Position numbers and translations under genes: made by a program. The notes under the pieces are model-generated. The model worked only from the letters and a program-made list of their open reading frames with translations, made no database searches and was not told the origin of the DNA. DNA of 64,000 nt from Cyanidioschyzon merolae (lineage: Eukaryota): the NCBI GenBank assembly GCA_000091205.1, contig AP006484.2; one strand, 5' to 3'. Shown here piece after piece: positions 2,562 through 63,400 of the stretch (positions within the stretch are counted from its first letter, which is position 1; each line of letters begins with the position of its first letter).

Positions 2562-5355
2562 ATACCTTTCCTACCCGCACAAGCGCAACGTCGAAAACGG
2601 AATTGTTTTCGCAGTCTACATACGTGGCAGAAGACCATGGAACGCTGAAGTACTCGCTCTGTTCCTGCCTTTCGATATTTTCTTGGAAGTTTTGTATACG
2701 TCTAGCCTTGGCGTTCAGAGTGAAGCAATAAGAGCATATGGATTCGTACGTTGGTTTAGAATTCTGGGTCGTGGATTCGGGTTAGCTCCTTCGACATTTG
2801 CCACTGGAATCCGTTACGAACACGGGTAAAGAGATGATTTACGACATCACCGAATCAGGGGTGATAGCGCAACAGACATCGTTATCCAGTGTATACAGGC
2901 TGGAATCCAATGTCATCTTTTCCTTGCGTTTAACATGATGGGGTCACATATCCGTCAAGTTTTCCAGCTTTCGCTCTCAAGGCAACTCGTGAGCGCAGGT
3001 ATTCGCCGCACTGGTTCGACGAGGAAGAATACTCGACTTTGTCACTCTTTGACTTGTTCAAAAGCTCACGTGACGATACTGCTCTGGAATCGCCCCGTAT
3101 AATACTCGACTCTGTTCAAAACATGAATCATACCGTTTTTGTAGACACCGACGAATTCGTAATCACCAGCACCAGCATGATCCACCTAACAGTATACGCC
3201 CTTAGCGACTCCCGTTTCTTCTATTCTGTTCCATTGGAAATGCAAAAACTGGAATTGGACTTGAATCATCGTAGCGATCGACTCCAGTGGGGCATGCGTT
3301 ACCGCTTTGCACAAACCGAGCGATCGCTGATCAAAATTGCTCTACTTGCACCCCAACATGGATTTCCTTTCCCGTGCTTGGTTCATCGTTGACAACACCA
3401 TGTTCCGGGAAACCGCCATCGAGCATGACAGTGTGCGGTCGCGCATGTATCGGACAGAGTACGAAAAGCGAGAATCGACCAGAAGAAGGTTACGATCGTC
3501 GGGCATGGCTCTGGACGTGGAAACGGAGGGCATCGAGTCGAGCCCTCTGTCCACGTCGAGGTCGTATACCGAGCAATGAAGAAAGCCTTCAAGCTGAGGT
3601 GGCCACCAGGGTAGAGAATATGGGAGACACATGGGGAAATGTTAGCAAAATACAAGTGTCACCGTTGCGAAGGGCGCACCAAGGCTTACGACAAAGAGCG
3701 TAAACATAGCGAGAGAAACCTTCACCGGAATCGTCGTCTGTTCATGAAACGCATAGCCCACAGCCTGAACCAGATAAGTCACGACTCGAACGCTGTCATG
3801 AACATCCCTCCATTGCTGGAAGCGGATCTAGGAGTAAAAGAGTTTCCAACGTATTAGACGCAGTAGATAAGCGCGCGGAAAGGTAGCTGTCGCAGAAGAA
3901 ACCAGGATGGGCTGGTATTGATGACGCGAGGAATACGCCAAAGATTCGTGTGTGTACGCCTCAGTTAGACGACTCGTTCCATTCTACTCTGACGAGGGCG
4001 CAGCGAAACGACGCGAGCTCTCAGCCGCATCGTACAACCCTAGCGGGGTGCGGATGCTCCAGAGAACCCTGTCCACGTACAAGCTTTCCATGATTTTAGA
4101 TACCATTCGCTAGAGGTAAATATGGATTGACTAGGTAGCTCTAATTGCCGAGTTGCAGCTTTCAGAGGCATCTCAGGCGACGCGAGAACTTTTCAGTTGG
4201 ACACAGAACGCGCTGCGTCTTTCGGTTCCGAGTACGTTCAGTTCCAGATCCGAGACTGCGTCCTGCCATGATACTTGTCCCGTGCGCATTTAGGATAAGG
4301 GAGGGCTTTTCTGTGGTTTGTCCCCGTTAAGAAAGGACGTTCGGAAAGGTGGAACCTTCCTATACAACATATGCATATGGGTTAGTGGCGATACGTCGCC
4401 GCTGTGCATTCCGTGGAGGTTCGGTCCCAGTGCCGCCTCCACCGCAGTCGAATGGTGTCCGTGTGAGTCGATGCCTCACGGCCTTGCATTGCACACAAAC
4501 ATGGAACATGGAAACGTGATCTTGTTAGAAAAGCTCCTGGGCAACCAAGCTGAAGCCTTACTCTACTTCAACGACGGTAGGAGTGCACAGTCTCGCTTCA
4601 TATCGCCCGTAAATGTGGATATCATCGAGGACGCACCAATCGCAATGTGAACGGGCTCCAGCCCAGGAAACAATAGACTCGACATGAAAACACGGGAATG
4701 AAACAGCACATTTGATGTTGCCGCCTTCCTAATCCATTCGAAACAGCTCACGTGGCACAATTGCCTTGTTGAGTAGCGTCGCTCATTTTCAGACAGACCT
4801 GAACGGGTGTACAAATTTAGGGGTCAAGAGCAAGGTTCGCTCTGGAATGCGCGCCCGGAGGCTTGCTTTGGAAACAAACTTAAACAAGAAGCTCCTCTAT
4901 ACCGTCCAACTATGTGTCATGATGCGTTTTTTCATCATCAGAGCAAGATATGCTGGACAGAGCACCTTGTCCGGCGCATGAGCGGTACGCCCACCGAGTC
5001 CTCCGGAATACACGGGGGATACCTGCAGCGCTCGCTGCCATACTCCCGTGTTTGCAGGACATCGGAGTTCAGCTTCGCTGCAACAAGCACAAAACGCCTT
5101 GATTGTTTGTCTGTCCTGAACTTTTTATAGTGTCTTCGGAACGGTAGCAGAGGCATATTTAACTTACGGAGACTTTTCGGGAACGAGGACCCACAGACGC
5201 TTTTCTCGAGCGGAAACCCGGTGCAGACACCGTCTCTGGTATCCCTGAGTTGGGGTTCACGCGAATCGGCAACCAGTGTCTGGTGTCGCTTTGGAGGGCC
5301 CATTCAAGCGCCTTGCTCGGTACGCTTCACGTGAGCGCTGCTCGAAGAGCCGAGT

Positions 5356-18401: not shown

Positions 18402-19826
18402 TTTACACCCACGTCACTGTAAAATACAATCGATTTATCACCAACGCCGCATAACCGAAAGCTCGGATCGCTTCAACCTCTCATAAGCACCAAACCGTTT
18501 GCGAGCAATGCTAGGCTTGCCATCCGTTGCCGTGCTCATCTCCGGCATTCAATACACCGGTATCGCTATTCCACCAGGCCTCGTCCGTAGTCGTCGTTCA
18601 GCGGCGCTGGTGGCAGCGCTCAACATTCACGATGACCCAGTTTCCAGCTCGTATCGATGTATTCCACACAACAACGAAAGTCCTCATCCATACAATGCCT
18701 GGCAGGTTCAGCTTCTGGGTACACAGCCGCGGTGCGCCCTTCGCAGCCGCTAACACTCGGTTGTCGTCAGGGATGCAAATGTTTCCGCCACACCGCCGCC
18801 TCATGCTCCCCTGAGCGCCGCTCTGAGGCACATCAAGACTTGGCCCAGCGCTCGCTTCTCGGCATTGACGGACGCCCACAGAGCGCTATTCGAGACGCCC
18901 TCACCCGCTGTCGATCCTGGTGCGGTTTCCCGGGATGTCGTCCCGCTTCTGGTTGATACCTTGCGCCGGTGCTCTGTCCGCTGTGCATACGATGGGGGCG
19001 CCATGCTCCCAGCCGCATCCGCATGTGGGATATTCGGTCATGTACAGGATGCAATACGTGCGGGACGGGAAATCCATACTGCACAACTGGATCCTACGCG
19101 TCGATCCGCCTATGCTTCGTCCATGAACAACGGTGACGCAGGCTCCACTGGAGTGCGGGTGCTGTGATGGCTCCAGCCCGAGTCCAAGGCGCTTTCGCGA
19201 GGAAACAGAAGAGACGGAGACGTCTCGCGGACGCATCCCACGAGATGTGATGTGCAGCCGTGGACTCGCGTCTCGTCGGTGTTCGCAACGAGACAGAGAG
19301 CGAGCGCGTGGACAGCGGAGATTGTTTCTCGAACGGAGTCGATGATTCGACGCACGAAGCTCAGTGAGCGTCTGGCACGATGCTGTGACATACTCGTCAA
19401 GCGGCAAGGTAGAGTGCTTTCCCTCGTCAGTCCGGACGCGGCACCTGCTGCGCGTACGTGTTGCCTCGAAACCGAACGATCGCATACTTGAGGCGTGTGT
19501 GGATTCGGCACGCTTTACGTAAGGAGAAGCGAAGAACAGACGCTTGCCCGTCTGCACTGCATCGTGATACCGTCCAGCTTACGAACACTGGGTCGAGGGG
19601 GTCGCGACTCCTCTTGGACTCGGTCAGGAGTACGGATAGCAGCGGCGAGGCGTCCGTGAAGTCACTTGGAAAAACTTCCGAGCCTCTCTGAATGACGCAC
19701 GAGTCCGTGAGCCGTCGTCGCTGGACTTGGAATACCGAAGCTGTCCATGTAAAGCATAGCTCGGAAAAATAGATACAGACAAATAGAACGAGCAGGTCAG
19801 TGTTTCCTTTTACCTGAAACGTGTAT
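18402..19826. repeat. Left copy of 1425-bp direct repeat flanking the GH31 gene
   Basis: It is collinear with 24365..25789 at a constant offset of 5963 bp, differing only by scattered point substitutions (about 99% identity). The same spurious ORFs appear in both copies at identical offsets. Neither copy has a recognisable coding capacity. Confidence 0.9.
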
Positions 19827-20177: not shown

Positions 20178-23171
20178 TTGCGCGGATTACTACAGGGCAT
20201 GAGGGCGTACCAGAGCACGTGGCCCTGCGGGTTCGTCACGGTGCTTCCGGCAGACCCAGAAGCGCGAGCACTATGCCCGAGTGAGCACTGGCTTCCATGG
20301 AAACACGCCGAAGACGCCCGCTACCAGCAATTGATCGTCGATCTCATTTCGAAAGATGAGAGCGTTGTTGTGCTCATCCTCATAGAGCGAACACCAGAGC
20401 AAACCGCCGAACCAAGCACAAACGCTCCGCTCGAACCGCTCCTGGGTATCGCCTTGTCGTTGCCGTTACGCCAACCCACTCAAAGCGTGACCCCAAGTCT
20501 AACGAGCCTGAAAACAGAACACGAATCTCGACGAGCAGTGAACGAGCACCTCTCGCGGCTGACGCCACTGGAAACTGGTGCGCTGGACCCAGCACCTGGC
20601 TCCTCACCGCAGAATGTGCTGCATGTGCAAGGCACTGCACATGAAGGCCTCTTAGAGTGCCACGTTTGCTACAGCCAGACTAAGGCATATGCGCGCCTCC
20701 AGCGTGATGTACTGGTATGGCGAGTCACTGACTCCCCTGACAACGAAAGGTTTCCCGAAGTTCGGATTCACTTGCGAGCGGCAGGACGATGGTACGGCAC
20801 TGGCCACCTGATGCAACAGCACTGGCCCAGCTGCGCGGCTTGCCTTGAACTAGGGCCTTTCTATCCTTTCGATAATGGAGTGTGCGGGCTAGGGACCCTC
20901 GCTATTCCCGGCTGGTGTACCACCGGGGGATTTGCAATTCTGGTTGACGAGCGTAGGACACCCTATCTTCATGTAGGTATGAATGCACCACGTGAAACAG
21001 ATGCTGCAGCCTCACGTCGTGCCTGGACGGTAGGCCATGAGAACGCGCTGCGACAGGTACTTCCACTGCGAGACAGACGTTTTCCGCCTCGAGCCTTGGC
21101 TGGATCACACCAGAGCCCGTTACCTCTAGGTGACGACCTGCTCCGCATCCAGTCACGCTACGGTTACGACTACGAACGTGTCTGGCATCCATTATTGGGT
21201 ACTCGACTCGGATACGAAGACGAACTTGTGGTCTATGTGCATCTAGTGGTTACTCCTCGGCCAAACGTGCGCGCAGCGCGTGAGGCGCTCCTCGAACGCA
21301 TGGGTGCAGCGGCGACGGGGAGACGACTTTTGTCCCCACCTCGAAGCCTGCTCCAGCATCCTATTTGGACGACCTGGGCCCGCTTCAAGCAGAACGTAAC
21401 ACAGGAGGATGTTCTGAGTTTTGCGCAAGAGATTGCAGCGCGGAACCTGCCGCGCAGTGTGATGGAAATCGATGATCGTTGGTCCGAAGCCTATGGTGAT
21501 TTTCGCTTCGATAGGGTCAAGTTTCCGCAACCAGCACAGATGGTGCAGGCGCTGCATGCTCTGGGCTTCAAAGTAACGCTTTGGTGCACTGCTTTTATTG
21601 AGGAAAAGAGTCAAGCGTATCTAGAGGGGCGTTCGAAAGGGTATCTGGTTGCCGATGGGGCCCTCTTTCCCTGGTGGCAACCGCAGCCGGTCGCTGCGCT
21701 CGATGTGGCCAATCCAGAGGCCTGTCGCTGGTTCTTAGAGCGGGCACGAATCCTACGTGCTGAGACCGGGGTTGACGGGTTCAAGTTTGATTCAGGAGAG
21801 CCGTGTTGGTTACCCCGGCAGCTCGAGGCGTACACCCAGCTCGCATATCCCGGTCAGTATACGGACTGGTGGCTGCAGCGTGTTGTTCTGCCACTCATTC
21901 TTGGAACAGAGGCGCCGCAGGTCACTGGTACAGATCACAGGATAGGCATGGAGGCGAGTGCATCGCTTCCTGTGACCAGGATGGATGCTGGAAGCGTAGC
22001 AGCATCCGATGCATTTCGCGCGACTCGAGAAACCCCTTACCTCATTCGGAAAGCAGCAACTCGCGAAGCACAGCCCGAGACAGAGAGCCCGCGCTTCTCG
22101 GTAGAAGCCGAAGCGCGAACAAACTCAGGAGTTGCCGCCCATGCCGTACTGTCTGCGACAACCTTGGACGACGCAGAGCAGGTGCCTGTTGCTCCCGCCG
22201 AGGCTCGCGCAGCGACAGCCACTGGACTCGCGGCGGGTGCCCAGCCAGCCCAGTGGATCCCTTGTCTGTACCGCATGTTCGATCGTTTCTCCCATGACGG
22301 GATCGACAACGGGCTAGCGTCGGTGATCCCCACCATGCTTACCAGTGGTGTGTTGGGATTTTGCTTCGTTCTCCCAGATATGGTCGGTGGTAACGAGTAC
22401 GATCAAGTGCAGGCTGGCGCTGATCTCATGATGCGTTGGCTCTACGCGAATGCGCTGATGCCCTCCATCCAGTTATCACTGCCGCCCTGGAAATATGGAG
22501 CAAGCGTTGAGGCAGCGCTTGTTGAGGCTCTTGCTGTTCGGAAGCATATCCTCGAGGATAGCGGCCTTTTGGAGGCGCTCGTGCGTTCGGCTTGTGAAGA
22601 GGGAGCCCCCCTTGCACGGCCAATGTGGTGGCTCTGTCCTCAGCTCGCTATCTCGTGGGATATCGATGATCAGTTTATGCTGGGCGATGACGTGTTGGTA
22701 GCGCCAATGCTGACACCGCTGAGTGCGGTATACACCAGTGCAGCGATCGATGCTCTGAATGCAGACCAAGATACCCACGTACCCGGGGTGACGCATCCAC
22801 TCGGGCCGACGCCGTCGACTACCGCTACGCACACACTTGAGCGCGTGCCGCAACAAGTGCCTCCGAGCAAGTCGCCGCGTTCCTCATCCTGTACGCCAAA
22901 TATGACAGATTCACGTTCCCTGCAGCCTCGGCAACGTCAGGTCTGGTTGCCCCCTGGTAACTGGTGTGCCTATCACCCCAGCAGCAGTATCGGCGCAGTG
23001 CGGCTTGCTACGCCTGCTCCAGCACCGCTGACGGGTCCCTGCACGATCACAACGACAAGCGTTCTCCCGGTTTACGTGCGAGTCGGATCCGCCGTAGCGC
23101 GTTTCGTTTTCGCTGATGCTGAAGAAGCGGCGGCTCACCTGGTCGAAAGTCATGGTATCAACGACGCCTGA
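20178..23171 (+). CDS. Glycoside hydrolase family 31 protein (alpha-glucosidase/alpha-xylosidase-like, YicI/KIAA1161-like)
   Basis: MEIDDRWSEAYGDFRFD...FKVTLW is the GH31 (beta/alpha)8 N-terminal segment. GVDGFKFDSGE resembles the GH31 acid/base region (compare YicI VDCFKTDFGE). The motif VLPDMVGGNEYD is also present. The ~250-aa C-terminal tail is low-complexity, Pro/Ser/Thr-rich. Confidence 0.75.
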   Translation: MRGLLQGMRAYQSTWPCGFVTVLPADPEARALCPSEHWLPWKHAEDARYQQLIVDLISKDESVVVLILIERTPEQTAEPSTNAPLEPLLGIALSLPLRQPTQSVTPSLTSLKTEHESRRAVNEHLSRLTPLETGALDPAPGSSPQNVLHVQGTAHEGLLECHVCYSQTKAYARLQRDVLVWRVTDSPDNERFPEVRIHLRAAGRWYGTGHLMQQHWPSCAACLELGPFYPFDNGVCGLGTLAIPGWCTTGGFAILVDERRTPYLHVGMNAPRETDAAASRRAWTVGHENALRQVLPLRDRRFPPRALAGSHQSPLPLGDDLLRIQSRYGYDYERVWHPLLGTRLGYEDELVVYVHLVVTPRPNVRAAREALLERMGAAATGRRLLSPPRSLLQHPIWTTWARFKQNVTQEDVLSFAQEIAARNLPRSVMEIDDRWSEAYGDFRFDRVKFPQPAQMVQALHALGFKVTLWCTAFIEEKSQAYLEGRSKGYLVADGALFPWWQPQPVAALDVANPEACRWFLERARILRAETGVDGFKFDSGEPCWLPRQLEAYTQLAYPGQYTDWWLQRVVLPLILGTEAPQVTGTDHRIGMEASASLPVTRMDAGSVAASDAFRATRETPYLIRKAATREAQPETESPRFSVEAEARTNSGVAAHAVLSATTLDDAEQVPVAPAEARAATATGLAAGAQPAQWIPCLYRMFDRFSHDGIDNGLASVIPTMLTSGVLGFCFVLPDMVGGNEYDQVQAGADLMMRWLYANALMPSIQLSLPPWKYGASVEAALVEALAVRKHILEDSGLLEALVRSACEEGAPLARPMWWLCPQLAISWDIDDQFMLGDDVLVAPMLTPLSAVYTSAAIDALNADQDTHVPGVTHPLGPTPSTTATHTLERVPQQVPPSKSPRSSSCTPNMTDSRSLQPRQRQVWLPPGNWCAYHPSSSIGAVRLATPAPAPLTGPCTITTTSVLPVYVRVGSAVARFVFADAEEAAAHLVESHGINDA

Positions 23172-24364: not shown

Positions 24365-25789
24365 TTTACACCCACGTCACTGTAAAATACAATCGATTTA
24401 TCACCAACGCCGCATAACCGAAAGCTCGGATCGCTTCAACCTCTCATAAGCACCAAACCGTTTGCGAGCAATGCTAGGCTTGCCATCCGTTGCCGTGCTC
24501 ATCTCCGGCATTCAATACACCGGTATCGCTATTCCACCAGGCCTCGTCCGTCGTCGTCGTTCAGCGGCGCTGGTGGCAGCGCTCAGCATTCACGATGACC
24601 CAGTTTCCAGCTCGTATCGATGTATTCCACACAACAACGAAAGTCCTCATCCATACAATGCTTGGCAGGTTCAGCTTCTGGGTACACAGCCGCGGTGCGC
24701 CCTTCGCAGCCGCTAACACTCGGTTGTCGTCAGGGATGCAAATGTTGCCGCCACACCGCCGCCTCATGCTCCCCTGAGCGCCGCTCTGAGGCACATCAAG
24801 ACTTGGACCAGCGCTCGCTTCTCGGCATTGACGGACGCCCACAGAGCGCTATTCGAGACGCCCTCACCCGCTGTCGATCCTGGTGCGGTTTCCCGGGATG
24901 TCGTCCCGCTTCTGGTTGATACCTTGCGCCGGTGCTCTGTCCGCGGTGCATACGATGGGGGCGCCATGCTCCCAGCCGCATCCGCATGTGGGATATTCGG
25001 TCATGTACAGGATGCAATACGTGCGGGACGGGAAATCCTTACTGCACAACTGGATCCTACGCGTCGATCCGCCTATGCTTCGTCCATGAACAACGGTGAC
25101 GCAGGCTCCACTGGAGTGCGGGTGCTGTGATGGCTCCAGCCCGAGTCCAAGGCGCTTTCGCGAGGAAACAGAAGAGACGGAGACGTCTCGCGGACGCATC
25201 CCACGAGATGTGATGTGCAGCCGTGGACTCGCGTCTCGTCGGTGTTCGCAACGAGACAGAAAGCGAGCGCGTGGACAGCGGAGATCGTCTCTCGAACGGA
25301 GTCGATGATTCGACGCACGAAGCTCAGTGAGCGTCTGGCACGATGCTGTGACATACTTGTCAAGCGGCAAGGTAGAGTGCTTTCCCTCGTCAGTCCGGAC
25401 GCGGCACCTGCTGCGCGTACGTGTTGCCTCGAAACCGAACGATCGCATACTTGAGGCGTGTGTGGATTCGGCACGCTTTACGTAAGGAGAAGCGAAGAAC
25501 AGACGCTTGCCCGTCTGCACTGCATCGTGATACCGTCCAGCTTACGAACACTGGGTCGAGGGCGTCGCGACTCCTCTTGGACTCGGTCGAGAGTACGGAT
25601 AGCAGCGGCGAGGCGTCCGTGAAGTCACTTGGAAAAACTTCCGAGCCTCTCTGAATGACGCACGAGTTCGTGAGCCGTCACCGCTGGACTTGGAATACCG
25701 AAGCTGTCCATGTAAAGCATAGCTCGGAAAAATAGATACAGACAAATAGAACGAGCAGGTCAGTGTTTCATTTTACCTGAAACGTGTAT
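24365..25789. repeat. Right copy of 1425-bp direct repeat flanking the GH31 gene
   Basis: See 18402..19826. This copy has identical length and differs only by point substitutions. Confidence 0.9.
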
Positions 25790-30752: not shown

Positions 30753-31001
30753 AGTCAGCAGATAACGAATAAATCGTATACACGTAAGTTGCCAGCGCTA
30801 GCCCTCGTCTGATACCGTCCAGACAACGGCCAAGCAGCGTGCGCAAGCGATCGAGGGTAGGGCGTTAGAGCGTCGTGCGCTGCAACTGAAGCGCCAACGA
30901 TCAAAAGCATCGAGATCGCAAAAGAAGTATGACACTAATGTATAGAACTATACAAAAGGTGAATGCGCCTCTGACGCTGCTGCATGCTGGTGTGTGATGT
31001 C

Positions 31002-31158
31002 CACGCACAGCACGGCACGGCACGGCACGGCACGGCACGGCACAGCACGGCACGGCACGGCACGGCACGGCACGGCACGGCACGGCACGGCACAGCACGG
31101 CACGGCACGGCACGGCACGGCACGGCACGGCACGGCACAGCACGGCACAGCACGGCAG
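31002..31158. repeat. (CACGG)n microsatellite, about 31 units, with occasional CACAG variants
   Basis: The pentanucleotide run is visible directly. The overlapping ORFs in all frames (poly-HGTAR, poly-AVPCR) are artefacts of the repeat. Confidence 0.95.
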
Positions 31159-31649
31159 CGGCGCGCGAAACGTCGAGCAGACCTCTGGTCGGTCATGCAC
31201 GCACGCAGCATCCTCGTGCATCGAAGCTTTTCATGGCGGCAAGCACGTTGGAAATGAAGCAGGAACGATCATCCAGACGTGTACGTACTGTGTTCCATGC
31301 AGAACAGTGAATGCTGGAACAGCAGTGCCAACGCGTTCTTTCTGTTTCTATTTGATCCCCTCGCGGGTGTACATCAATGGGAATGCACCTTGGGATTGAG
31401 TCAAGGTCGAGCAACAAGGCTTCAGGCTACTACTGCTCGCTTTGGACGGAATGGCACCACTTGCACGAGTCTGATATGCTACGGTTAGCAGGTTGATGGA
31501 CCATCATTCATGTAGTTCGTACCCTGAACGTACTGCACCACACACAGAACTTTTCAAGTCTGTCCATGGGACTGCATCCTCTTCAATCGGTAGCAATCCA
31601 TAAGGTCTTTGATTAGTACCATCAAAGGAGCCATAAAATGTCGAGTTTG

Positions 31650-32200
31650 CTACTCGGTCTATATGAGTGGCGGGTCATAGACGGGGCTAGGAAGAGACAG
31701 CGCTCTTCTAGACATGCTCAAAAAACAGAATATTGTCCAACGATCATCGAAAGTCTAGAAGTATCGAATGACAGGCGCTTTCGAGCCTTTTCTGACCCGC
31801 TCCCTGCCATCAGCTCCAGTTCCTCCTTGTGCACTTCGACCCCGAGTAGCTGCCCCACAAATTTAGATCGCCTTAGCTCCACTGGTCGTGTCTCCAGCAC
31901 CGCATATCGTCTGATGTTGACAGCGGCTTTAGAGTGTCAGTTCACAAACCCCGTGCATTTCTTGCCGCTCGTTGAACGCACCTCTACTCCACCTCCTCCT
32001 TCGTTTTCGTCACTTGCTTTCCTTCGCTCGATGGTCAGCGAGAAGAGGATTTTTCCGTTTTTCGTCTGGCACCCGATGATGACGGGCCTCGAGGACCCCC
32101 GAATTCCATCTCTATGCCTTCCCCTGCGACCCTTTAATTTCTTCAAAATGAACGCACTTCATACACACCTTCTATAAATCACGACAAAGCATTTGATAGC
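31650..32200 (-). mobile_element. Truncated copy (3'-terminal ~450 bp) of the DNA-transposon family seen at 42.4–43.85 kb and 57.65–59.0 kb
   Basis: Block-wise DNA similarity to 42480–42860, e.g. gtctccagcaccgcatatcgtctgatgttgacagcgg versus gtctcgtgttcagcatcaaactttgtctgatattgatggcgg. Also ...gatggtcagcgagaagaggatttttccgtttttcg versus gattgtcagcgagaagaggactttttcagtttttg. The shared peptide motifs in ORF 31638..32177 are spurious. Boundaries are approximate. Confidence 0.6.
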
Positions 32201-32212
32201 ACGCATCCGCAG

Positions 32213-33118
32213 GTGAAACACTGTTCAGGTAAACGACTAGAAAACAGATACACCAGTGAAACACGGTTCAGGTAAACGACTAGAAAGCAGATACACCAGT
32301 GAAACACTGTTCAGGTAAAGGACTAGAAAACAGATACACCAGTGAAACACGGTTCAGGTAAACGACTAGAAAACGGATACACCAGTGAAACACTGTTCAG
32401 GTAAACGACTAGAAAACGGATACACCAGTGAAACACTGTTCAGGTAAACGGCTAGAAAACGGATACCCCAGTGAAACACGGTTCAGGTAAACGACTAGAA
32501 AACGGATACCCCAGTGAAACACGGTTCAGGTAAACGACTAGAAAACAGATACACCAGTGAAACACGGTTCAGGTAAACGACTAGAAAACGGATACACCAA
32601 TGAAACACGGTTCAGGTAAAGGACTAGAAAACAGATACCCCAGTGAAACACTGTTCAGGTAAACGACTAGAAAACAGATACCCCAGTGAAACACGGTTCA
32701 GGTAAACGGCTAGAAAACGAATACCCCAGTGAAACACGGTTCAGGTAAACGACTAGAAAACGGATACACCAGTGAAACACGGTTCAGGTAAACGGCTAGA
32801 AAACGGATACACCAGTGAAACACGGTTCAGGTAAACGACTAGAAAACGGATACACCAGTGAAACACGGTTCAGGTAAACGGCTAGAAAACGGATACCCCA
32901 GTGAAACACGGTTCAGGTAAACGACTAGAAAACGGATACACCAGTGAAACACGGTTCAGGTAAATGACTAGAAAACGAATACACCAGTGAAACACGGTTC
33001 AGGTAAACGACTAGAAAACGGATACCCCAGTGAAACACGGTTCAGGTAAACGGCTAGAAAACGGATACGCACCAGTGAAACACTGTTCAGGTAAACGGCT
33101 AGAAAACGGATACACGAG
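32213..33118. repeat. 43-bp minisatellite, about 21 tandem units (consensus gtgaaacacggttcaggtaaacgactagaaaacagatacacca)
   Basis: Near-identical head-to-tail units with a few recurrent variant positions (acgg/actg, cacca/cccca, acagat/acggat/acgaat, cgact/cggct). There are no unique spacers, so it is not CRISPR-like. Confidence 0.95.
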
Positions 33119-33250
33119 TACACCGTACGTCAAGCCACGAGTGAGCGCTGTGCACCATGCGCGCCATGGCGCATCGGCTGCGACGCTGGAGCCTATACGA
33201 CTATCATACGGTTTCGAGGCCGTTGTATTCACTGCCTAGCGCAGCTGCGT

Positions 33251-38865: not shown

Positions 38866-39059
38866 GAGGGTGTACGCAAGTACGTGTTCACCCGTCGCCG
38901 CAGTGCTCCTACCGTGCGTTCCGCACCAAGCGGGCGTTTCGAAGCACCCGCGTTCGCAGCATGAAAACGTGGTGCGCGATCAGCGGCTTCGCCGCCGCCT
39001 TCGATGCTGGATAAAGATGTATTTTTAGGTAGAAAGTGACACTCGCTCCGTTCGTGCGT

Positions 39060-39445
39060 GTTTGCTGCAGCCATCTTTGCGTTTGTGTCGATCGCGTCGA
39101 TCGATCGTATGCGTACATACACCGACGTGCAGAGGCTTCCCGGCCTTGTTCGACCGGCCATCTGTTATCGTTTTCAGCTTCTCGTTGTACATTTCGACCC
39201 GGAGAGGCTGCCTCACCAAGTTCGATCGCGTCAGTTCCTCGGGTCTCGTCTCCAGTACCGCACATCTCCTCGTATTGATGGCAGCGTTCATGCCAAGGTT
39301 CATGAACTCTCTGTGTTCATTGCCACTGGTTGAACACAACCATGGAAGGATTCCTCGAGCACGTACCCTCTGCGCCGTTCGCTGCTCTGTCAGCTCTCCG
39401 TGCTGTTCTACCTCCGAAGCGCTCCGCTGGCTTTTTTCCATCTCG
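39060..39445 (-). mobile_element. Truncated copy (3'-terminal region) of the same transposon family
   Basis: DNA similarity to 31700–32050 and 42480–42700, e.g. gtacatttcgacccggagaggctgcctcaccaagttcgatcgcg versus gtgcacttcgaccccgagtagctgccccacaaatttagatcgcc. Also gtctccagtaccgcacatctcctcgtattgatggcagcgttcat. Boundaries are approximate. Confidence 0.55.
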
Positions 39446-39708
39446 ACGCTCTGAAGCGTATACCCTAGCTTATAGAGTATGGTTCAGGTACGGAACTGAC
39501 CTATCGGTGCTGTGACAAAACGATGTGCACGCTCTTTGTACGCTCGTGTCGACGGAGCGAGTATGCTCCCTTTTATGGACGCCCAGCTCGCTGCTCCGTA
39601 TGCTACTACGGGTCTCTGACTCTCGTCCTCCCTCAGGGCGCTCAAGTGATTGAAAAAGTTGGCAAGTGCACGTTACTTCCCTCGGTACAAGTTCACACGC
39701 CAATGAGC

Positions 39709-41352
39709 TCACCGGAACCTGTTGTTCTCTTGCCAAAACGCCTCCCATTGCGCAACCTGAACTTCCACGAACTCCTGAAAAGCTTTAAGGTCCGCTCCAA
39801 GGTTTGTCGCCCCGCTCATCGCTTCGAGGTGATTCTTACCTCCTGTATTCCGCATCTCACATTTTTTCCTTGCATTCATTCGTTCCGACCCTCGATAGTA
39901 GCGCGCGTTCGAGGACTTTCGAAGACGCATGTCGCTCTGGTGTAAGTTGCCGTCGTTACCATCTTGCCCGCGCTTAGGCACAGCGACGATCATGGTATCC
40001 GTGTTCCCAGGGCGTTCCGTGCCGATGACAAAGTCGTTCCCGTGCACGTTGTGCGCCGCAGGGCCCGCCTCCTTTTCATCTTCATGCTTCGCCGAGGGCG
40101 ACAACGACGACCGAACAGGGTGATCCACATTCGAGCGCCGATAGTGTACACCTATGGATACCCCATCGCTTTCGATCTTCCCCGTGAATACCTTCTTCTT
40201 ACTCGTTTTGCGACGTTTGAAATCGAAGATATCCCTCCAATAGGTGTCGCGGTCTTCGCCCGTGAACTCCTCCCTGCTTACATCGAACTCGGGACAGATC
40301 TCCTTCATAATGCCGAAAAGGACGCCAGAATCGATTGTGATAAAGTGTGACTTGTCCTCGCATATCGGAACGACATTGAAGCGCTGCTCCAGAAGCGAAG
40401 CCCTGCGTTCCACTGAATCTTCATTTTCCTCCACGTCCAGCTCCATATCGGCCATGCGTTCGAGCTCTCGATTCAGAAACACGAAAGAACGCAGGATGAA
40501 GGGACAACATCTCTCTTCACCTTTTTTCATCTCTGATACCTTTTCTGTTGGGTTGACCAGCCCCAGTACCGCACGGTGCTCTTGAATTGCCGCACGAATC
40601 ACAGAATCCACATTCGTGCTCGTCCATGATGTCTTCTCGTCGACGAACTCGATCTCCTGGTCATCCCGAGGATCGTTCGTGATGCCATCGATGATGGCCC
40701 ATATTCCTTTGCGAGACAGGCCCGGGCACAGCGCGAAGACGGAGCGTTTCATGAAGCGTTTGAGGTTCATGATCATGTGGTTCTTCAGGTTCGTGACGTA
40801 CTTCATCGCTCCGTAGGTGTCAATCTCTCGGTGGCCCCTGTATCGAGCACCGCTGAAGCGGTATTCGGGGTGGTTCTCATGGAAGGTTCTCACTCGCTCA
40901 TTGCTCGTCGACATTTCCCCTGCGCCAACCATTAGTTGGCGAATGAAAGACACGTGGAAAAATTCTTTCGGAACCTCGACCGTTTTGATGTCGGTAACGT
41001 CGGAGAACAAATCGTTCACGAATTTCGTCAGTCCTAAAGAAGCGTTAAGAATACTACTGGAGTACGACTCGACAGGTTTTCTGATGGACTCTCGCAACTT
41101 TCTCTTGTAGGGTTCCTTGATAGGGCTTCCGAGAAAGGCTTTCACTACGACCTCGTTCTTGTGTCGTCTTTCGAGTTGCATTTGTCGTGAGGCCTCCTGC
41201 TTCTGATACGTCTTCTTCTTCTGTTCATCTGGAGTTGGCACTGGTTTCCGTTGCTTTGTCAAATCCGGCGGCAGGGGGCCTCCAGGATCCTCGAATTTCG
41301 TGTTCATTATTTTTATTTTTGAAAACGAACGCGGTTCGAAAGCGTCTACCAT
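39709..41352 (-). CDS. Hypothetical basic 547-aa protein with no recognised domain, lying in an AT-richer island between transposon-family copies
   Basis: The ORF is uninterrupted, but it is Lys/Glu/Arg-rich and clearly lower in GC than the neighbouring genes. I recognise no catalytic or structural motif. Confidence 0.4.
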
Positions 41353-42399
41353 TAATCACGAAAAACACTTGACTAGACTTGTTTGATGTTCCAAAACTAA
41401 TGAACTGAAAGACTGTACTTGGTTACGACCTCAACGGAAACCCAACTTTTTTCCGGTAGAACAACACGCTACTGATCAAGATCGCGTTTTCCTTCAACGG
41501 AGGCATATGCGTCGTGTCTCATGTCGGCCTGATCTCCCAGATGCGCTCATTTAGCGCAATGCGTGTACCGCGCAAGACGCCTCACCGATCGATGAAGGAC
41601 ACGTGTCCGACGCCCCGCATTGGCACATGCGTGTTTGCATCGCACTGCAGCTGAAATCGGGTGCCGTAGATCGGAAACTCCCGTAGAATGCACTCCTGCT
41701 ATAGGCTATGTCGCTGGTGCCGACGCAAATGCCCATCGCAGTACCGCCCTGACATACATGGAGATGCAAGGGCCTAGCACGATACCCCGCGATGCTTCTA
41801 TCAAAAGCGTATCCATCGCAGTATCCTACGCTCGTGCGGGTGCGGTGTGCATCACTCTACTCAATAGGAATTTCGTCAGTTTTATTGATCGTAAGCAAAC
41901 AAGGCACGGTCTCGTTCCCGAACTCGTATATATGTTTACTCCCTATGCTTGTTATGCACACTGCACGGACGCTGGAACGAGGAACTGACCTGAATTTTGC
42001 TTCTATCCGGCGTCATGGCCTGGTACTGATGACCGTTCAAGTCATTTCCATTCTGCCGTCGTTGTCTAACTTATGGTGCCTGCTTCATCCTCCGGGTCCG
42101 GTGATCTTGGCAGAGGCATCGCACACAAGTAGCGCCCATATCTATCAGTGCGTTTGACCAACGCATCTAGTCTGGCATGATCGAGGCATATGACAAAGAG
42201 CGCATGCTGCATCCTGTTGCACCCTATCGGTTTACTTGCAAGAGCGTACCCTGTATGTAGTGGTGAAATCGCCAAACCGGGAACTTTTTCTGGACCCCTG
42301 CCGAGCCCTATGCTCCCGAATATTCGATGGCTACTTTCTGATTTCGCATTCCCAGTAGTAATACAGTAGAACATACGGATTTCTTTCTTTCTGTACGAA

Positions 42400-43850
42400 T
42401 GAACACACACTAGGGTCAGTATGGAACGAAATGGTGCCACGACCATAGAGCGCATATATAAACTCACTTGCAGACGCCTCCAAAACTTTTTTGACTGGCC
42501 CTCTGGACTCGGGTTCAGCTTCTCCATTTACATCTCGAGCATGACACAATGCCTCTTAAAGTTGGATCTCGTCAGCTCCGTGGGTCTCGTGTTCAGCATC
42601 AAACTTTGTCTGATATTGATGGCGGCGTTAAAGTCTCGGTTCACGAACTCTACACGTTTATGGTAGCTTCTTGAACTCACCTTTGCTGAGATTCATCGAA
42701 CTCGCGCCCTCTGAGCCACTACAGTCTCGCTATCGCCACGTCGCGCAAACACTTTCTCTCGCCTATCTCTCATCGTTATAATCTTCTTGCTCTTTTTCGC
42801 TTGATTGTCAGCGAGAAGAGGACTTTTTCAGTTTTTGTCGGAGCTGGCGACTCCGGGTGCCCAAAACCCTCGACGTCCATGTTCATAACTTTCTCCTCGC
42901 TTTTTTATTTCCGGAAGCGAACGTACTTCTCTATGCCCTTGGGCGACGACCTTCCCAGAGCGAGAAGGACTTTCGCAAGAATGACGACATGTGCCCCGGT
43001 GTGTCGAAGTGTGCTGAACGCTTCAGCGATTCGCACAGTGGAGCGCTCATTACGTTTTACAATTTGGAACGCTTCTTCGATGGGCTCGAAAATTACACCG
43101 TTTGGAAGAATGGAAAGTAACTTTATCGAGATAGACTCGGCAAAAGCCCAAACGCAAGCAGAACGGTGGGAATGCCATGTTGTCCAATAGAAGAGCATCG
43201 CCAGACGTCAGCGGCAAAAGTCTTTAATGATTCGACGAAGTGGTTGGCGCTGTTGTACGTGCCTTCTCTACCATCGAAACTGAAGCCGCCAGACGAATCC
43301 GCTGCGCCTAGAACAGATGATTTCGTCGTTCTCTTCCCGTTGGTTCGTACATAGAATGATCTTCCCCACCGCGAATACCCATGTACGATCCGACCTTTTC
43401 GTGCGAAGGATGTCTCGTCACCTGAAAAAATGAACCGATGCCCCTGTGCTTCATATCGAAAGTGACGCTCCAGGAACGCTGTCGTTGCGATTTCGGTGGA
43501 AGATGTCCGTGAATGAAATAGAAATCTTTTTTGCGACTGTATCCAAGTATTTTCAGGACCACAACAACAAGCTGTTTAGAGGCAGAGACACCTGTTGTGG
43601 CTATTACCGTCGCTTTCGCTCTCCGTAAGGTGCTCAAAGGGTCGTTCTGTGCAATTGACCACGAACCGTCTTTGAGAATATCGGTTTTTGCAACGGAGCG
43701 CATATACTTGTTTCTTTCAGTGCTCCGCAACCGTCTGAGTTCTATGGTATCATTGACCTGAAGGAGGCATGCAGTCTTCATGCACTGTCCAGTAAAGAGC
43801 ATACATCTAACAGGCAATTCGTTTACGATCTATACGGTACATCGCAAAGT
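42400..43850 (-). mobile_element. Degenerate DNA transposon, copy A, with a frameshifted DDE-transposase-like pseudogene (PIF/Harbinger- or IS1595/Merlin-type C-terminal motif)
   Basis: It is collinear at the DNA level over about 1.3 kb with the reverse complement of 57650–59000, at about 75–80% identity. Minus-strand ORF fragments 43308..43817 and 42905..43198 share RIAEAF.TLRHTGAHVV with copy B. They contain ...PIEEAFQIVKRNER..., resembling the conserved E-x-x-F-x-x-L-K-R motif of DDE_Tnp_4 and IS1595 transposases. The reading frame is broken, so this is a relic. Confidence 0.55.
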
Positions 43851-57546: not shown

Positions 57547-57649
57547 GGTTTACCGCGTCAACGCTTCGTGGAAGCACAGCTCGTAATCGCTTTCATCCTG
57601 GTGCGGTGCATAGCAGTCGATTCGCTTTGGTGTGTGCACGATGCCGAAC

Positions 57650-59000
57650 AGAATGTAGACGAATCGCCCTCAGGATCTATATTGTTTACTGAATAGTGTA
57701 AGGAGTACTGCATCTCTGATTCGGGTCAGTCGCACCACAGTACTCAGATGGTTGAGGAACTCTAAAAGAAAGAAGGATATGGGCTCTGTGCCAAAAAACT
57801 GGTATGCTCTATAACTGCTTTCGGTCTATTGTAGAGAACGACTTTTTGATCACCTGACAAAAAGCGAAAAAGCGAAGATTATAGATGCCATGAGCGTCTC
57901 TGTTTCTCAATAGCTTGTTCATGGGGCCTCAAAACGCTGGGACACAGTCGCCGAGAAAATGTCCTAGTTCACATACGGCTATCTTCTACAGATATCGCAA
58001 CGACAGCGTTTCTGGAACGTTGCGGTCGGTATGAAGCAGAGGTAAGCCAGTTTATTTTCACAGACGATGAGACATCCTTCGGACGAAACGGTCGGATCGT
58101 AGATGGGTATTCGCTGAGAAGGTGCGCGTTCTGTGTGCGATCGAACTCGAAGAGAACGACGACATCATCATCTGTTCTAGGAGGAGTGGATTCGTTTGGC
58201 GGCCTCGGTTTCGCTCGTGGAGACGGCGCATCCTACAGTACCAACCACTTTGTCGAATGATTGAAGGGTTTTCCCTGGCATCTGGTGACGTTCTTCTATT
58301 GGAGAACGCGGTATATCACCATTCCCTTGCGATGGAGCTTTCGCCGAATCTATCGGGATCGAGCTGCCTTTCATTTGTCCATACGATCCGTGGTTCAGCT
58401 CCATCAAAGACGTGTTTTTTATGTTGAAAAGTAATAATCGCCTCGGTGACCGAATCGCTGAAGCGTTTCGCACACGGCGACACACTGGGGCACATGTCGT
58501 CTCTCTTTCGAGAGTCCCTCCAGCTTCGGAAAGTTTCTCACCTCGGAGCAGAGAGAAGCGCATTCATTTTCAAGAAATAGAACAATCCAAGGGAAGGTTA
58601 TGGACATGGAAGTCGAGGATGCTGGAGCGCCGTCATCGCCGGGTGCATGAAAGAAACGAAAAGTAATCTCCTTCTCGTCGACCATCCCTCGGAGAAGAGC
58701 AAGTGAAGAAGAATAAAAAGAAGATAGATACGCGAGCAAAGTTGTTTGCCCAACGAGATGATGACGAGACTGGCATGGTACAGAGGGCGCGAATTCGATG
58801 ACTCCTTGCACGGAGGAGTTTCACCAGCGGCAATAAACGCCAGGAGTTCATGAAACGAGACTTGAACGCCACTGTCAATATCAGACGATGTGCGGTGCTG
58901 AAGACGGGACCCGAGCATCTCTCGCGACCAACTTCATGCGGCAGCCTCGCAAACTCGATGTGTTCAGGAAGAAGCTGAAACCGGTATTAGGGGGCCAATC
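57650..59000 (+). mobile_element. Degenerate DNA transposon, copy B (same family as 42.4–43.85 kb), with a transposase pseudogene, in the Nup98/Nup96 divergent upstream region
   Basis: The reverse complement of 58600–58940 aligns with 42560–42880. The region 57700–58100 aligns with 43380–43700. Plus-strand ORF fragments 58122..58427 and 58412..58666 share RIAEAFRTRRHTGAHVV with copy A. The frame is broken. Boundaries are approximate. Confidence 0.55.
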
Positions 59001-60484
59001 AAAATAGCCGGGAGGCGCCTGTGCGTGTTTCTTCATATCCACTCCATGGCCGTGGGACATTTTTTGTTTCTCTGATCACACGTAACTGAAACGAATGTAG
59101 ATGAACGCTAGCTGAGCGTTTAGTGGCGCAGCAGCGGCGACCGGACATATATGGTGCGGTGGTACTGGATGCACTCCGAGGGTGTCATTTTTTTCGTGGT
59201 ATCGCATCAGTGAACGTATTGCGACTCCCGTATGATGCAGATGGAAGCATGGAAGGCGACGAGTATACGAAAATTTCTGCGGCAAAAGACCTGCAGTGCA
59301 CGGAAGAGAAGGAAATGTTTTTTAGAGCTTTCTTTTACCGAGACGTGAGTGAAATCTGTAGTGCCTCGAATCTACCAAGTCTTTACAATGCAAGTCTTAT
59401 GAAAAATTGCTGCCGATTTCTCTGAATGTCCATGTTCGCCGTCTAGTGTGGCCTGTAACCTGTACCTCTTGAAGGCTACCCGTGTCTGACAGCGTTCTCT
59501 AGACAACCAGAAGGACGCAATCACCTCTGGATGCATCCACAGGCGTTCCGATCCGGCACTGGATAGCATCTGCTCGTGTGGCTTGGGCGGGGGCGGAGGC
59601 GGGCGCCACCAAGTGGGATACACTTGCCTGCTGCTGCATACGCTCGAATGGCGCTCCGACACTGAAGAGCAAATGCTCGCGTAGCATCTGCTAGATACGT
59701 CTGCTTTCTTGTGCTCCGGCCCGGAAGCGACATGAAAATTGTCGGTTCCTCACGATCTGGAGTCCTCGCTCAGCGGCCTGCGTAGGCATGCGACAAGTGC
59801 CGCGCACTCCTGAAGCTATATGCTCTTGCGGCAGAACCGGCCCCGGCTGAGGAGCCATTCAGAACGCGACAGCATTGAAGTGCTGCAGGCCCTGGTCGCA
59901 TATATCTCGGACAGGAGCATTCCGGCATTCGAAAAGCATAACAAGCGTTTTTATTTAGCCGAACGCGAGTTCGATTGTCTCGAAGCCCGAGTTCAGCGGC
60001 AGTGCTCCGAAGCACGCTGGTGTTGCGGTGCACCGAAGCGGTAGATCCTCGTTACCTGCATATTCGCTGCAATGCACAAAAACGCCACAAATACCGCGTG
60101 GAATACGGAGATAACTCTTCGTCGACCACTTGCCCCAGATCATCTGATAATTTTTTCAAGGCATCAAAGCGCCTTGCCCTGCTTTCGACGCAGATAGAAA
60201 CCATGGATACGTACCGCCTAAATGCACACCGTAGATAAGATTGACAAAAAGGTCACGTGCTGCAGACGCAACACAGTTCTTTCTCGCATGCCTGGTGCCG
60301 CTTGGCTTTACTTTTTGCATAAAGCGCCATTGTTTTGGGTTAACGGTCCTGTTTACAAAGGGACTTGCTTTTCAGAAAGCACGGACAGGTCGTCTCCGGC
60401 AACCGAAACTGAGCGCGCCTCGAAAAAAACGTTTCGTGGGCGCCGACGCTGGTCTTCGCTCCGTACGACCTACGCCAGCGCTCC

Positions 60485-63400
60485 ATGGTTTCATCACCCG
60501 CGATTCAGGTTTCTGCTGTCCAAAGAAACGTTGAAAGTGGTTGGCGGGCACCCACAGGCTACTCTGACTCAGAAGACACTGATGACGGGAAGGATGAGCG
60601 CCTTTTTCGCTCAGGTCCGCGACGGATCGAGGTGCCATCAAGTAGCGAGAGCGAAACATCGACCTCGCCGCCGTCAAAGCTTGCTCGATCGACACCGTCT
60701 GCGTCGAGTGCCTCTACAGATGGGATAACTGCTGGTGCAGGTGTGGATGAAGAAGGAAACGAATCGGATTACGTCGCACCAGGTGTTTCCTTTTCTCGTT
60801 TAGCACGACGATACACGCTTGCTAGGTCCTGGCTACCCGGTGTGCACCGTGCCCTCTTCGCAACGCCCGATGAAGCATTCGGAGCTCCCTCGACGGACAC
60901 GCCCATGGATATGAAACAGCATAATCGCTCCGTAGCGCGGACCCAGAGACCCGAGTCGCGTCACATACAGGCTACCGATGGAACCGGGGACCGCGCTGCA
61001 GCTGAGCGTTTAGAGCCGCTCGACGCGGCAACAGCGGCAACGCTGCAGCTGCTGCAGTCAAGCACGTCAACGGAACTGGGTGAACAACGTGAGCTGCATA
61101 AAGCAGTTGAGTTGTCGCGCAAATCCCTCATAGCGGATACCGCAAGCATGCATGCTACTGGGCAAGTATCCGACGCATTTCGCTCGCGGATTACGGAACA
61201 GACTCGCGCTCCGTCGCTTCTTGCGTCCGAAACGAACGTTCAAGTTGTTTCGGTGGCGGGCACTTCACCGAGAACGGCAGTTCTTCGATCCTTGGATCAA
61301 CTTCTTGAAGAGCGAATGCGTGGACTGGATATCGCCACAGCTTTCATGCCCATGGCTCGCGTCATAGGTCCTCTCGTGTTTGCGAATGGAGGCGGGCCTG
61401 AACGCAGCGCGAAGCGCGCTGCTTGTGGGGTCGTATACCCTTCCATGAAGATGTGGACGCCTTCGAAAGGCACCGCTGATCGGTCAGAGCTTCATCTCGG
61501 CCTGGTTCGTGTTGCAGACGACGCCGCAATAGAGGCATCCGTACACTGCGAGGCGACCAGCCGCTACCAAACACTCGGTGAAGCACTTGCCACGGGAAAT
61601 CGGCGCCATGATTTTTTCCAGGAACTGGTTACTCGCTACAGGACACAAAAGGATGAGCACGGTGAGATTGTTGCAAGCTTGTTGGACGCCCTGTATGGTG
61701 ATCACGCTGGAGCTGCATCAACATGGTATAGGTTTTCAGCATGGCTGAGGGATTGTGCCTGCCCCAAGATGCAGAGCGTAGATGAATTTCGAGACGATTG
61801 GCAACATGCGCGTGCCGTTTCTGCGGTTTCCGCTGCATCCGACGGGCAAGCACTCGACGAAGCGCTTTTTTTGCTATCCGGAGGCCAGGTGCTGGCGGCA
61901 GCGCAGCGGCTGCAAAAGGCCGGCGACTTGCGCCTCGCACTCCTTTTGAGTCGCTGTCTGGACCCGCATGAAGACTTGGCATTGGATGCGGCGAATCAAG
62001 TGGAAACGTGGGAAAACGATGGCCTTTCTGAAAAAACGCTTGGAGCGCGCCGTCTTGATCTCATGTACTTGTTAGCAGGCCAAGTACAGCGTGCTTCTGG
62101 TCATGCCCTCGTGTCAATGGATGAACCGCCTTGGTTCTGTGGACCGCATTTGACGTGGATACGGGCCTTTGCCTTATTTTTTTGGTACGCACGCATGGAT
62201 GCCAGTAGACGGGACGCTCTGCAGGGATCCATGGATGCCACTGCCGGTGCCGCTGATACGAATGATTCGTGTACCGACGCATACGCGGATGACGTGCGCT
62301 TCCGTATGCGGCTTAGCGCTGCGCTAGACGCCTACGAGACAGCCTGGAAGGCGGCGATGCACTTACGTAGCCGCAGTCGCGACCTAGATGATGATGAGGA
62401 GCAGGACGAGCACGAGGACGCGGAGGATGCGGTGCGACCGTCGGCAACAAGGTCACCGCGATCATCACCACCGGCGATGCACGCATCCTCTAGATCGCCA
62501 TCACCGATTCCCAGATCGCCTAGATCGCCTAGATCGCAGCTACGTGCATCCTCTAGATCGCCTAGATCGCCTAGATCGCCTAGATCGCCTAGATCGCCTA
62601 GATCGCCTAGATCGCAGCTGCGTGCATCCTCTAGATCGCCGTCACCAATGCCTAGATCGCCTAGATCGCAGCTGCGTGCATCCTCTAGATCACTGAGGGC
62701 GGTAGCGGCTGCGTCACTCGCCCGTGTGCCACCGCCGCTGCCGCCGGCCCTGGATCGTGCGCATCGCAGGGGCGAGCTGCGGCAGCTGCCGCTCACTGCA
62801 GATGAGGCAGAGACGGGGCCCGAGGATCGCGTCACCACCCTAGCGGTATTCGATGCTGTCTATGTACTCTTGCGGTGGTATTGTCTTTCGCCTACGTTCT
62901 GTAGCAGGCGTTATCAGCTTATGCCAGAGTGCTTTGGTCTTCACAAGAGTGACTCTTTGGATTTCCGGCTTGTGTGGTTGCTGTGGGAGTGCATAGGCAG
63001 CGGCGCATGGGTATCCGTGCCTTTTGACTGGATTGATCCGCTTCTACGAGCACAGTGCTACGAGGCGTATGCGTTGCAGCTTGAGTCTGCCGGGAGGCCG
63101 CTCGAGGCAATCTACGTTCGGGCGACGCTCAGTCGCGGATCGGATCTGCTCCAGTATCTGTGCTATCTGTGGCCGCGTCTGCTTCGAGAAAATGTCCCCG
63201 ACTGGCCTGTTTCGTTGCCTGTTGCAGGTGAGTTGCGAGGATCAGGACCCAGTTCGGAGGCTTCGTGGTCAACGGTGCGCACTGCCGCTGACATCGACTC
63301 GCTGCCGGTGATGCGTTGGCTCCGAGAGCGCGTCCGCCTGCCGCGGTGCTGGCTCCTGCAGGCACACTACCAATGGCTGGAGTTTGCGCTTGTGGCGGCG

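Follow-up and report, generated by a model that had tools for sequence, protein, structure and literature searches.

The window analysed here is a 64,000-nt stretch of nuclear DNA of Cyanidioschyzon merolae 10D (contig AP006484.2), as four flanking open reading frames (ORFs) were exact matches to recorded 10D proteins: EF-1α-like (BAM78903), rhomboid (BAM78906), DnaJ (BAM78913) and CRAL/TRIO (BAM78917). The chromosome carrying these four proteins is 457,013 bp long, and ordinary nuclear genes, among them ChlH, GidA, TAF4, Nup98 and a kinase, account for the other long ORFs of the window. The divergent genes PAT1-like and DnaJ are separated by a 5.3-kb spacer. In it lies an island of lower guanine-plus-cytosine (GC) content with a 547-aa ORF, which a preliminary description, made from the letters alone, had considered an unrecognisable gene between two copies of a transposon family. 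As set out below, the island very probably consists of two adjacent, dead insertions of the CMe-1 family of Fanzor1 transposons in the same orientation, the 547-aa ORF being the part of a broken Fanzor1 gene that runs from the ATG to the first stop. Coordinates refer to the window, and features of the island lie on the minus strand unless stated otherwise.

The ORF at 39709..41352 was present as described, with a mildly basic pI of 8.85 (90 Lys + Arg, 83 Asp + Glu) and a composition rich in Arg as well as in Lys and Glu. It forms the N-terminal three-quarters of a pseudogene and aligns with SpuFz1, a Fanzor1 of Spizellomyces punctatus, through the RuvC-I motif inclusive. The pseudogene as a whole (39025..41352) consists of 775 codons in one frame, interrupted internally by three in-frame stops and free of frameshifts; family homology ends in it at about 39211–39217. 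Residues 1–584 of the relative P0004 were aligned by tblastn to 40893..39217 as one in-frame high-scoring segment pair (HSP) at 54% identity, P0031 likewise gave a single in-frame HSP, and positions 8–603 of the family protein hidden Markov model (HMM) spanned 41205..39211 with a score of 532. The 138-aa ORF at 39025–39441, which contains ...NLGMNAAINTRRCAVLE..., had been taken for a truncated element copy on the left of the island. Because the tblastn HSP runs in a single frame that is interrupted by in-frame stops only, the 547-aa ORF and this left-hand "copy" are one broken gene. Stop 1 (39709..39711, TGA) replaces a Trp of the relatives and is also found in the sister strains L006 and L007; stop 2 (39673..39675, TAA) replaces Gln or Lys, and stop 3 (39484..39486, TGA) the Ser or Thr of the motif EFR[ST][ST]. 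An alternative genetic code as the source of the stops was rejected, since host genes in the window are read normally with standard stops, the Trp, Gln and Ser codons were turned into stops by single substitutions, and catalytic residues were lost too. The gene once encoded a Fanzor1, a eukaryotic RNA-guided nuclease related to TnpB and Cas12, of about 730 aa.

That the ORF matches no known family held for Pfam taken alone, in which no match was obtained for the 547-aa ORF, the downstream 138-aa and 92-aa ORFs or the ORFs of the right-hand element; the exact 547-aa sequence was also not on record in the protein collection, where the proteins of its neighbours are. It did not hold for profile and fold searches, and the remote-homology and structure-prediction check that had been proposed returned Fanzor1 only. 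A database search gave 43 relatives, the full-length ones of 580–680 aa ending in ...VDEFRTS...NRDFNAAINIR..., which is the C-terminal signature of TnpB and Fanzor proteins. The family profile was searched against 177,635 distinct sequences of the Protein Data Bank (PDB) and matched only Fanzor1 of Parasitella parasitica (9cf0, E 8e-12) and SpuFz1 (8gkh, E 7e-9); matches to TnpB, Cas12 or Fanzor2 were absent from this search. An AlphaFold2 model of the 547 residues reached a mean predicted local distance difference test (pLDDT) of 69 and a predicted template modelling score (pTM) of 0.58. In Foldseek against the PDB, ranks 1–7 for this model were all Fanzor1 proteins (SpuFz, PpFz, GtFz; E 3e-8 to 5e-7, probability 1.00), with modest TM-scores of 0.35–0.42, and the next match had E 0.35. 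The ORF is thus assigned to a Fanzor1 gene by sequence profile and predicted fold, in line with the placement of C. merolae under Fanzor1 by Bao & Jurka 2013 (PMC3627910). PF07282 (TnpB/Cas12f TNB, OrfB_Zn_ribbon) was found in the distant homologue P0042 at E 1e-5 with 25.9 bits, against a curated cut-off of 26.3, and weakly in P0035 and P0043.

In the HMMER alignment, with residue numbers counted, the Asp of the family motif xDPG and the Glu of DEFRTS correspond to D383 (chain D777) and E541 of SpuFz1, while for the NRD Asp, whose residue number was not counted, the order of the motifs points to D606. In the cryo-EM structure of SpuFz1, D383, E541 and D606 coordinate two Mg2+ ions (PMC10432273). 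The window copy has all three residues substituted, and the split RuvC triad, in motif form D-X(125,275)-[TS][TS]-...-RD, is absent from it. RuvC-I (40003..40020) reads TERPGN instead of the family xD-PGx, the Asp equivalent to D383 being lost where the window reads ER; RuvC-II (39487..39501) reads GQFRT* instead of DEFRTS, with Gln for the Glu equivalent to E541; RuvC-III (39274..39300) reads NLGMNAAIN instead of NRDFNAAIN, with Gly for the NRD Asp. The triad is kept in the family consensus (GADPG, DEFRTS, NRDFNAAINI) and in the intact copies L016 and L005. Judged by these substitutions and the stops, the window copy is a catalytically dead member of the Fanzor family, a pseudogene.

SpuFz1 (Spu-1 elements; PDB 8GKH; Saito et al. 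2023, PMC10432273) resembles the window family in profile, fold and the aligned D/E/D residues, whereas sequence identity is about 14%, a clear C4 zinc finger is not evident in the CMe family, and the window copy is catalytically dead. Spu-1 elements further carry terminal inverted repeats (TIRs) of 30–33 nt and TA duplications, which CMe-1 lacks. Bacterial TnpB of the IS200/IS605 and IS607 elements (OMEGA systems) belongs to the same superfamily, a RuvC-like nuclease with a split D-E-D triad whose guide RNA is encoded at the right end of the transposon and whose ORF-less derivatives retain the ends. Unlike these insertion sequences, the CMe family is eukaryotic and nuclear, has a Lys/Arg-rich N-terminus and gave no direct sequence match to any TnpB or Cas12 structure. 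No TnpA-like or other recognisable transposase was seen beside the copies inspected.

Relatives were confirmed by tblastn in 404 places in hot-spring metagenome contigs, and family copies stood in unrelated contexts, beside SMC, CcmE, peptidase M17 and other genes. From the scan of metagenome contigs, 80 paralogous loci were fetched (the survey of reading frames covered 85 fetched loci); homology depth along the window rose sharply at about 39110–39150 and fell at about 41550, and more than 75 paralogous copies delimit the element. An nhmmer profile and a consensus were built from 22 non-redundant paralogous copies. Positions 2–2453 of this profile matched 39120..41560 (E = 0), delimiting a CMe-1A-like element core of about 2.44 kb. 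The consensus has a GC content of 49.3% and encodes an intact 734-aa protein with all three RuvC motifs; family copies are about 85% identical to it per column, the window copy 75% (25% diverged), with few indels. Several classes of copy can be told apart by the 5′ module that precedes the common core. The window copy carries the subfamily-specific module "class C" at 41561..42255, shared by the six loci L039, L065/66, L071, L076 and L079, which are homologous up to 42005–42255. Core and module (2.44 kb and 0.69 kb) add up to an element of about 3.1 kb, and no inverted repeat was reported between its two ends within the window.

The family was already described in 2013, and the stretch is an ordinary decayed copy pair of it. 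CMe-1A, a Fanzor1 element of C. merolae, was reported with about 150 copies that are about 80% identical to their consensus, about 3 kb long and in some cases intact (Bao & Jurka 2013, Mobile DNA 4:12; PMC3627910); it has no TIRs, its target-site duplications were undetermined, and its 5′ 635 bp equal TE-N2_CMe (PMC3627910). The window copy agrees with CMe-1A/TE-N2_CMe in organism, in a length of about 3 kb, in the Fanzor1 gene, in having many old and few intact copies, in the absence of TIRs and in the separate 5′ module. Nothing essential differs, although the window copy is more diverged (75% identity, to the consensus of the present analysis) and dead. Copy 1 is accordingly placed in the CMe-1 family, matched to the published CMe-1A by description; the subfamily label, 1A or another, is tentative.

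Three further features were seen among the family copies. The common core opens with the palindrome GCGCTCggtGAGCGC (window about 41545–41560; consensus positions 4–18). A segment of 77–78 nt (profile 1477–1555), which encodes the acidic linker before RuvC-I, is tandemly duplicated 2–4 times in several paralogous copies (L039 5216–5293, L072 4291–4369, L076 3298–3527, L079 4259–4337), and these duplications are also visible in the proteins P0004, P0005 and P0007. L078 (4137–6545) and L084 (5061–7469) share an 803-codon open frame that starts as a Fanzor C-terminal fragment (HMM 551–603, RDFNA intact) and continues downstream; either the frame is open by chance in GC-rich DNA, or it represents a fusion.

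Head-to-tail with the full-length copy lies the relic at 42429..43844, an internally deleted, non-coding derivative of the family. Its 3′ sub-part (42460..42718) comprises the last ~85 Fanzor codons and the 3′ end (profile 2193–2454, nhmmer E = 1e-34; protein HMM 552–604, E = 1e-11), and its 5′ sub-part (42808..42928) the end of the 5′ untranslated region and the first codons (profile 226–348, nhmmer E = 8e-9), the two being joined across an internal deletion of about 1.8 kb. The same architecture of 5′ and 3′ parts recurs at 58556–58763 with 58775–59026 and at 32241–31993 with 31980–31752. The relic is 71% identical over 1436 nt to the inverted copy at 57639–59062 and also matches L072 (7080–8284) and L085. 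Beyond the last ~55 codons, no Fanzor was found in it by tblastn or by the protein HMM, and no coding signature was detected in its 5′ ~900 bp (42929–43844; common to L072 and L085), where conservation between copies is much the same in all six frames. The possibility that the relic is merely a more decayed full copy was ruled out, as tblastn with the 547 residues found no second ORF body in the window. From its structure the relic is regarded as an independent copy of the family that has suffered an internal deletion; S. punctatus is known to have similar Spu-1 copies that lack the ORF, called "ghost" elements (PMC10432273). Further ghost derivatives lie in the window at 57639–59062 (plus strand) and 31752–32241 (minus strand), together with a ~100-nt 3′-end fragment at 15063–15167 (plus strand); each of them coincides with a local GC low of 0.49–0.51. 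An array of 21 units of 43 bp (32213–33119, 94% matches), strongly A-rich on the plus strand, abuts the 5′ side of the derivative at 31752–32241.

Relic and full-length copy share direct repeats at 39111–39376 and 42452–42717 (68% identity). A Fanzor 3′-end fragment in the same orientation was likewise found upstream of the 5′ module in all five independent subfamily copies (window, L039, L071/L079, L076 and L065/L066), at distances of 0–875 bp from the module and with profile ranges of 2193–2454 (window), 2290–2423, 2446–2536, 2433–2537 and 2023–2542. The regions of fragment and module are 41561–42460 in the window, 3000–3685 in L039, 1931–2731 in L071, 923–1745 in L076 and 902–2744 in L066. 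In L071 and L076, fragment, short linker and module are co-linear and homologous, and the window fragment is the end of the relic, about 175–205 bp from the module. Of the ~45–50 other cores for which 1 kb or more of upstream sequence was available, none showed such a fragment. A repeat of the main-type 3′ terminus directly upstream of the window module was not significant (score 17 against 14.5 ± 2.1 in shuffles, 67 of 500 shuffles scoring as high or higher). The pattern could reflect a terminal direct repeat in a master copy, tandem or site-specific insertion, or chance. A rather doubtful suggestion is that CMe-1A-type copies tend to insert immediately downstream of a family member already in place, next to its 3′ end, or carry a direct repeat of their own 3′ terminus.

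The direct orientation of the ~265-nt repeats, and the recurrence of this geometry through the upstream fragment in five of five subfamily copies, are what a composite or cargo-carrying transposon would offer, in which the same-orientation copies at 39.06–39.45 and 42.4–43.85 kb mobilise a foreign 547-aa gene lying between them. The repeats are real, as is the mobile-element nature of the island, but in the left repeat lie the C-terminal codons and the 3′ end of the frame to which the ORF belongs, and between the two repeats stand the gene and 5′ region of the element itself. The ORF is a component of the repeat family and not cargo. An upstream 3′ fragment is missing from more than 50 other copies that have the ORF; the fragments vary in extent and in distance (0–875 bp) across the five copies, so that no fixed unit exists, and the unit of relic plus full copy was found only at the orthologous locus. 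A composite transposon is thus very improbable, and the island is better described as two neighbouring insertions of one family, the ORF being the Fanzor1 gene of one of them.

The low GC content of the island was confirmed. In 1-kb bins, values were 0.485–0.531 at 39–44 kb and 0.58–0.64 on either side. The segment 39120–43844 has a GC content of 0.505, below all 997 windows of the same size that do not overlap it (mean 0.567, standard deviation 0.028, minimum 0.521; 0/997 as low). In the 775-codon frame, GC at second codon positions is low (0.41) because the protein is rich in Lys, Glu and Arg, while GC at third positions (GC3) is 0.61, compared with 0.51–0.69 in host genes. Relative to the family consensus, the window copy shows 257 AT→GC and 198 GC→AT changes. 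Since the consensus itself is already at 49% GC and AT→GC changes are in excess in the copy, the GC dip is a family trait under erosion. A cause resembling repeat-induced point mutation (RIP) or deamination was rejected on the same two grounds. The lower GC content is intrinsic to the transposon family and is no mark of recent foreign origin.

A GC content below that of the host had also led to the proposal that recently acquired foreign DNA, of viral or other horizontal origin, landed beside a transposon, and Bao & Jurka propose viral spread of Fanzor genes between eukaryotes (PMC3627910), which would suit such an event. Against it, the same lineage holds hundreds of paralogues, GC3 is host-like, the copy has drifted towards host GC, and the sequence differs by 25% from the family consensus and is fixed in sister populations, where it carries the same lesions; several of these populations show 99% identity and the same stops. 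Relatives of the protein in unrelated genomic contexts with normal codon usage had been named beforehand as the finding that would speak against the view of the island as a cargo or foreign insertion, and this was what was observed, with relatives in 404 places and a GC3 of 0.61. Recent foreign acquisition is accordingly given hardly any weight beside old insertions of a resident Fanzor1 family.

Decay was followed at the orthologous locus, which is represented by five metagenome contigs (L001 and L006–L009) at 98.6–99.2% identity, those that are long enough including the relic. The two orthologues read codon by codon, L006 and L007, have all three stops in common with the window and carry ATA in place of the ATG start. 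Between L006 and the window frame, 14 non-synonymous and 5 synonymous changes were counted over about 1,700 non-synonymous and 480 synonymous sites, which, small as the numbers are, is close to the neutral expectation; in the adjoining PAT1-like gene, 8 non-synonymous and 7 synonymous changes separate the strains. The Fanzor1 frame is thus a neutrally drifting pseudogene. In-frame stops break many other family copies too, and only 2 of the 85 fetched loci (L005 and L016) keep an uninterrupted full-length frame, the L016-type frame having 778 codons.

A domesticated, nuclease-dead Fanzor fragment or lineage-specific host gene, whose product would keep the N-terminal domains and have a role in RNA-guided binding or regulation by analogy with bacterial TldR, was weighed against these data. 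It could account for a 547-codon open frame that survives at 25% divergence with no frameshift in 775 codons, for a ratio of non-synonymous to synonymous substitution rates (dN/dS) of 0.43 against the consensus, and for the position of the locus between divergent promoters; as in TldR, a nuclease-dead domesticated TnpB (PMC10705468), the RuvC catalytic residues are lost and the C-terminal part is cut off. Unlike in TldR, the losses in the window go together with nonsense codons, with a start codon that has disappeared in sister strains (ATA in L006/L007) and with a near-neutral ratio of 14:5 between strains, albeit with small numbers, all of which indicate decay and not domestication. The exact protein is not on record though its neighbours are, in-frame nonsense decay is common in other copies, and divergence at a time when the lineage was still an active element would itself give a low dN/dS relative to the consensus. 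Domestication is therefore considered most unlikely, and the frame is read as the remnant of a transposon-borne Fanzor1 gene.

The analysis thus shows what the gene is and how it has decayed, as well as the limits of the element, the relationships of the copies and their base composition. Copy 1 (about 39.07/39.12–42.26 kb) is a full-length element with a single Fanzor1 gene, now dead, and copy 2 (42.43–43.84 kb) a "ghost" in which the nuclease ORF has been lost while the final ~260 nt and some of the 5′ region persist. Judging from characterised Fanzor1 proteins, an ancestor that was still active would have bound, as its omega-RNA, a transcript of the element's 3′ end, from which the omega-RNA of SpuFz1 also derives (PMC10432273), and would have cut double-stranded DNA matching the 3′ guide of this RNA beside a short motif, helping the element to persist (PMC10432273).

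For the 3′ end, a consensus of 51 non-redundant termini runs about 80 nt past ...CTGCACGTC (about 39121), the point at which the window copy diverges, so that the main-type terminal ~80 nt with their hairpin are missing from the window copy. Copies of the relic type share an alternative 3′ terminus with a small number of full copies (L045, L048, L067), and 39070..39119 of the window may be a terminus of this type, given a weak and uncertain resemblance to both. The main-type end (for example, L002 5975–5997) closes with the hairpin CGTTCGActttCGAACGGCGTT(T); hairpins thus lie near both element ends without TIRs, and a variant arm in some copies (GTTTTTC/GAAAGG) would still pair. The consensus 3′ region contains several hairpins, including the terminal CGTTCGActttCGAACG. 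The RNAalifold consensus of 30 3′ ends was weak (-4.9 kcal/mol), column conservation of 0.8–0.9 throughout gave no hint that the 3′ end is better conserved than the body, as an omega-RNA would lead one to expect, and Rfam at the gathering threshold gave no match on the whole window.

Several points weigh against the interpretation of the island as dead CMe-1 insertions with a Fanzor1 gene. The 3′-terminal hairpins of the consensus fold only moderately better than shuffled sequences (z -2.1 to -2.4), and covariation in four hand-defined hairpins did not significantly exceed that in column shuffles (82.7% of cells paired, 82.1% after shuffling; 87/500). The exact 3′ end of copy 1 is uncertain and would fall somewhere in 39070–39120. 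The 5′ module at 41561..42255 is probably the counterpart of the TE-N2_CMe-like 5′ 635 bp, an uncertain identification. A canonical C4 zinc finger is not evident in the family, the consensus having THHELGC...KC (H-H...C...C) and no second CxxC. Finally, the dN/dS of 0.43 against the consensus (dS 0.57) implies that much of the 25% divergence predates inactivation, when the lineage still encoded a working protein.

Repeats of other kinds were also recorded in the window. A 1425-bp direct repeat (18402–19826 and 24365–25789; 98.7% identity, spacing 5963 bp) flanks a GH31 glycosyl-hydrolase gene (20178–23171) and may be a recent segmental duplication or a pair resembling long terminal repeats. 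Tandem arrays comprise (GCACG)n-like 5-nt repeats at about 31.0–31.15 kb (30970–31190) and 9-nt CCTAGATCG repeats at about 62.5–62.7 kb (62447–62700). Another dispersed repeat family, unrelated to Fanzor, is present at two low-GC spots (3259–3537 and 13500–13642), which are 64–68% identical to L002 13130–13472, the L002 part being the flank of a metagenome contig.

For the annotation of the C. merolae genome, these results mean that the stretch at 39.1–43.8 kb should be masked as a CMe-1 (Fanzor1) repeat and that the 547-aa ORF should not be annotated as a gene. Low-GC patches of this compact genome mark old insertions of Fanzor elements, and the window copy illustrates in detail the decay of such copies in C. 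merolae, by nonsense and missense substitutions with few frameshifts. The pattern of upstream 3′ fragments could help to explain the movement of TIR-less Fanzor1 elements: a tandem bias, if true, would be a clue to a transposition that is site-specific, of recombinase or rolling-circle type, or assisted by omega-RNA-guided homing.

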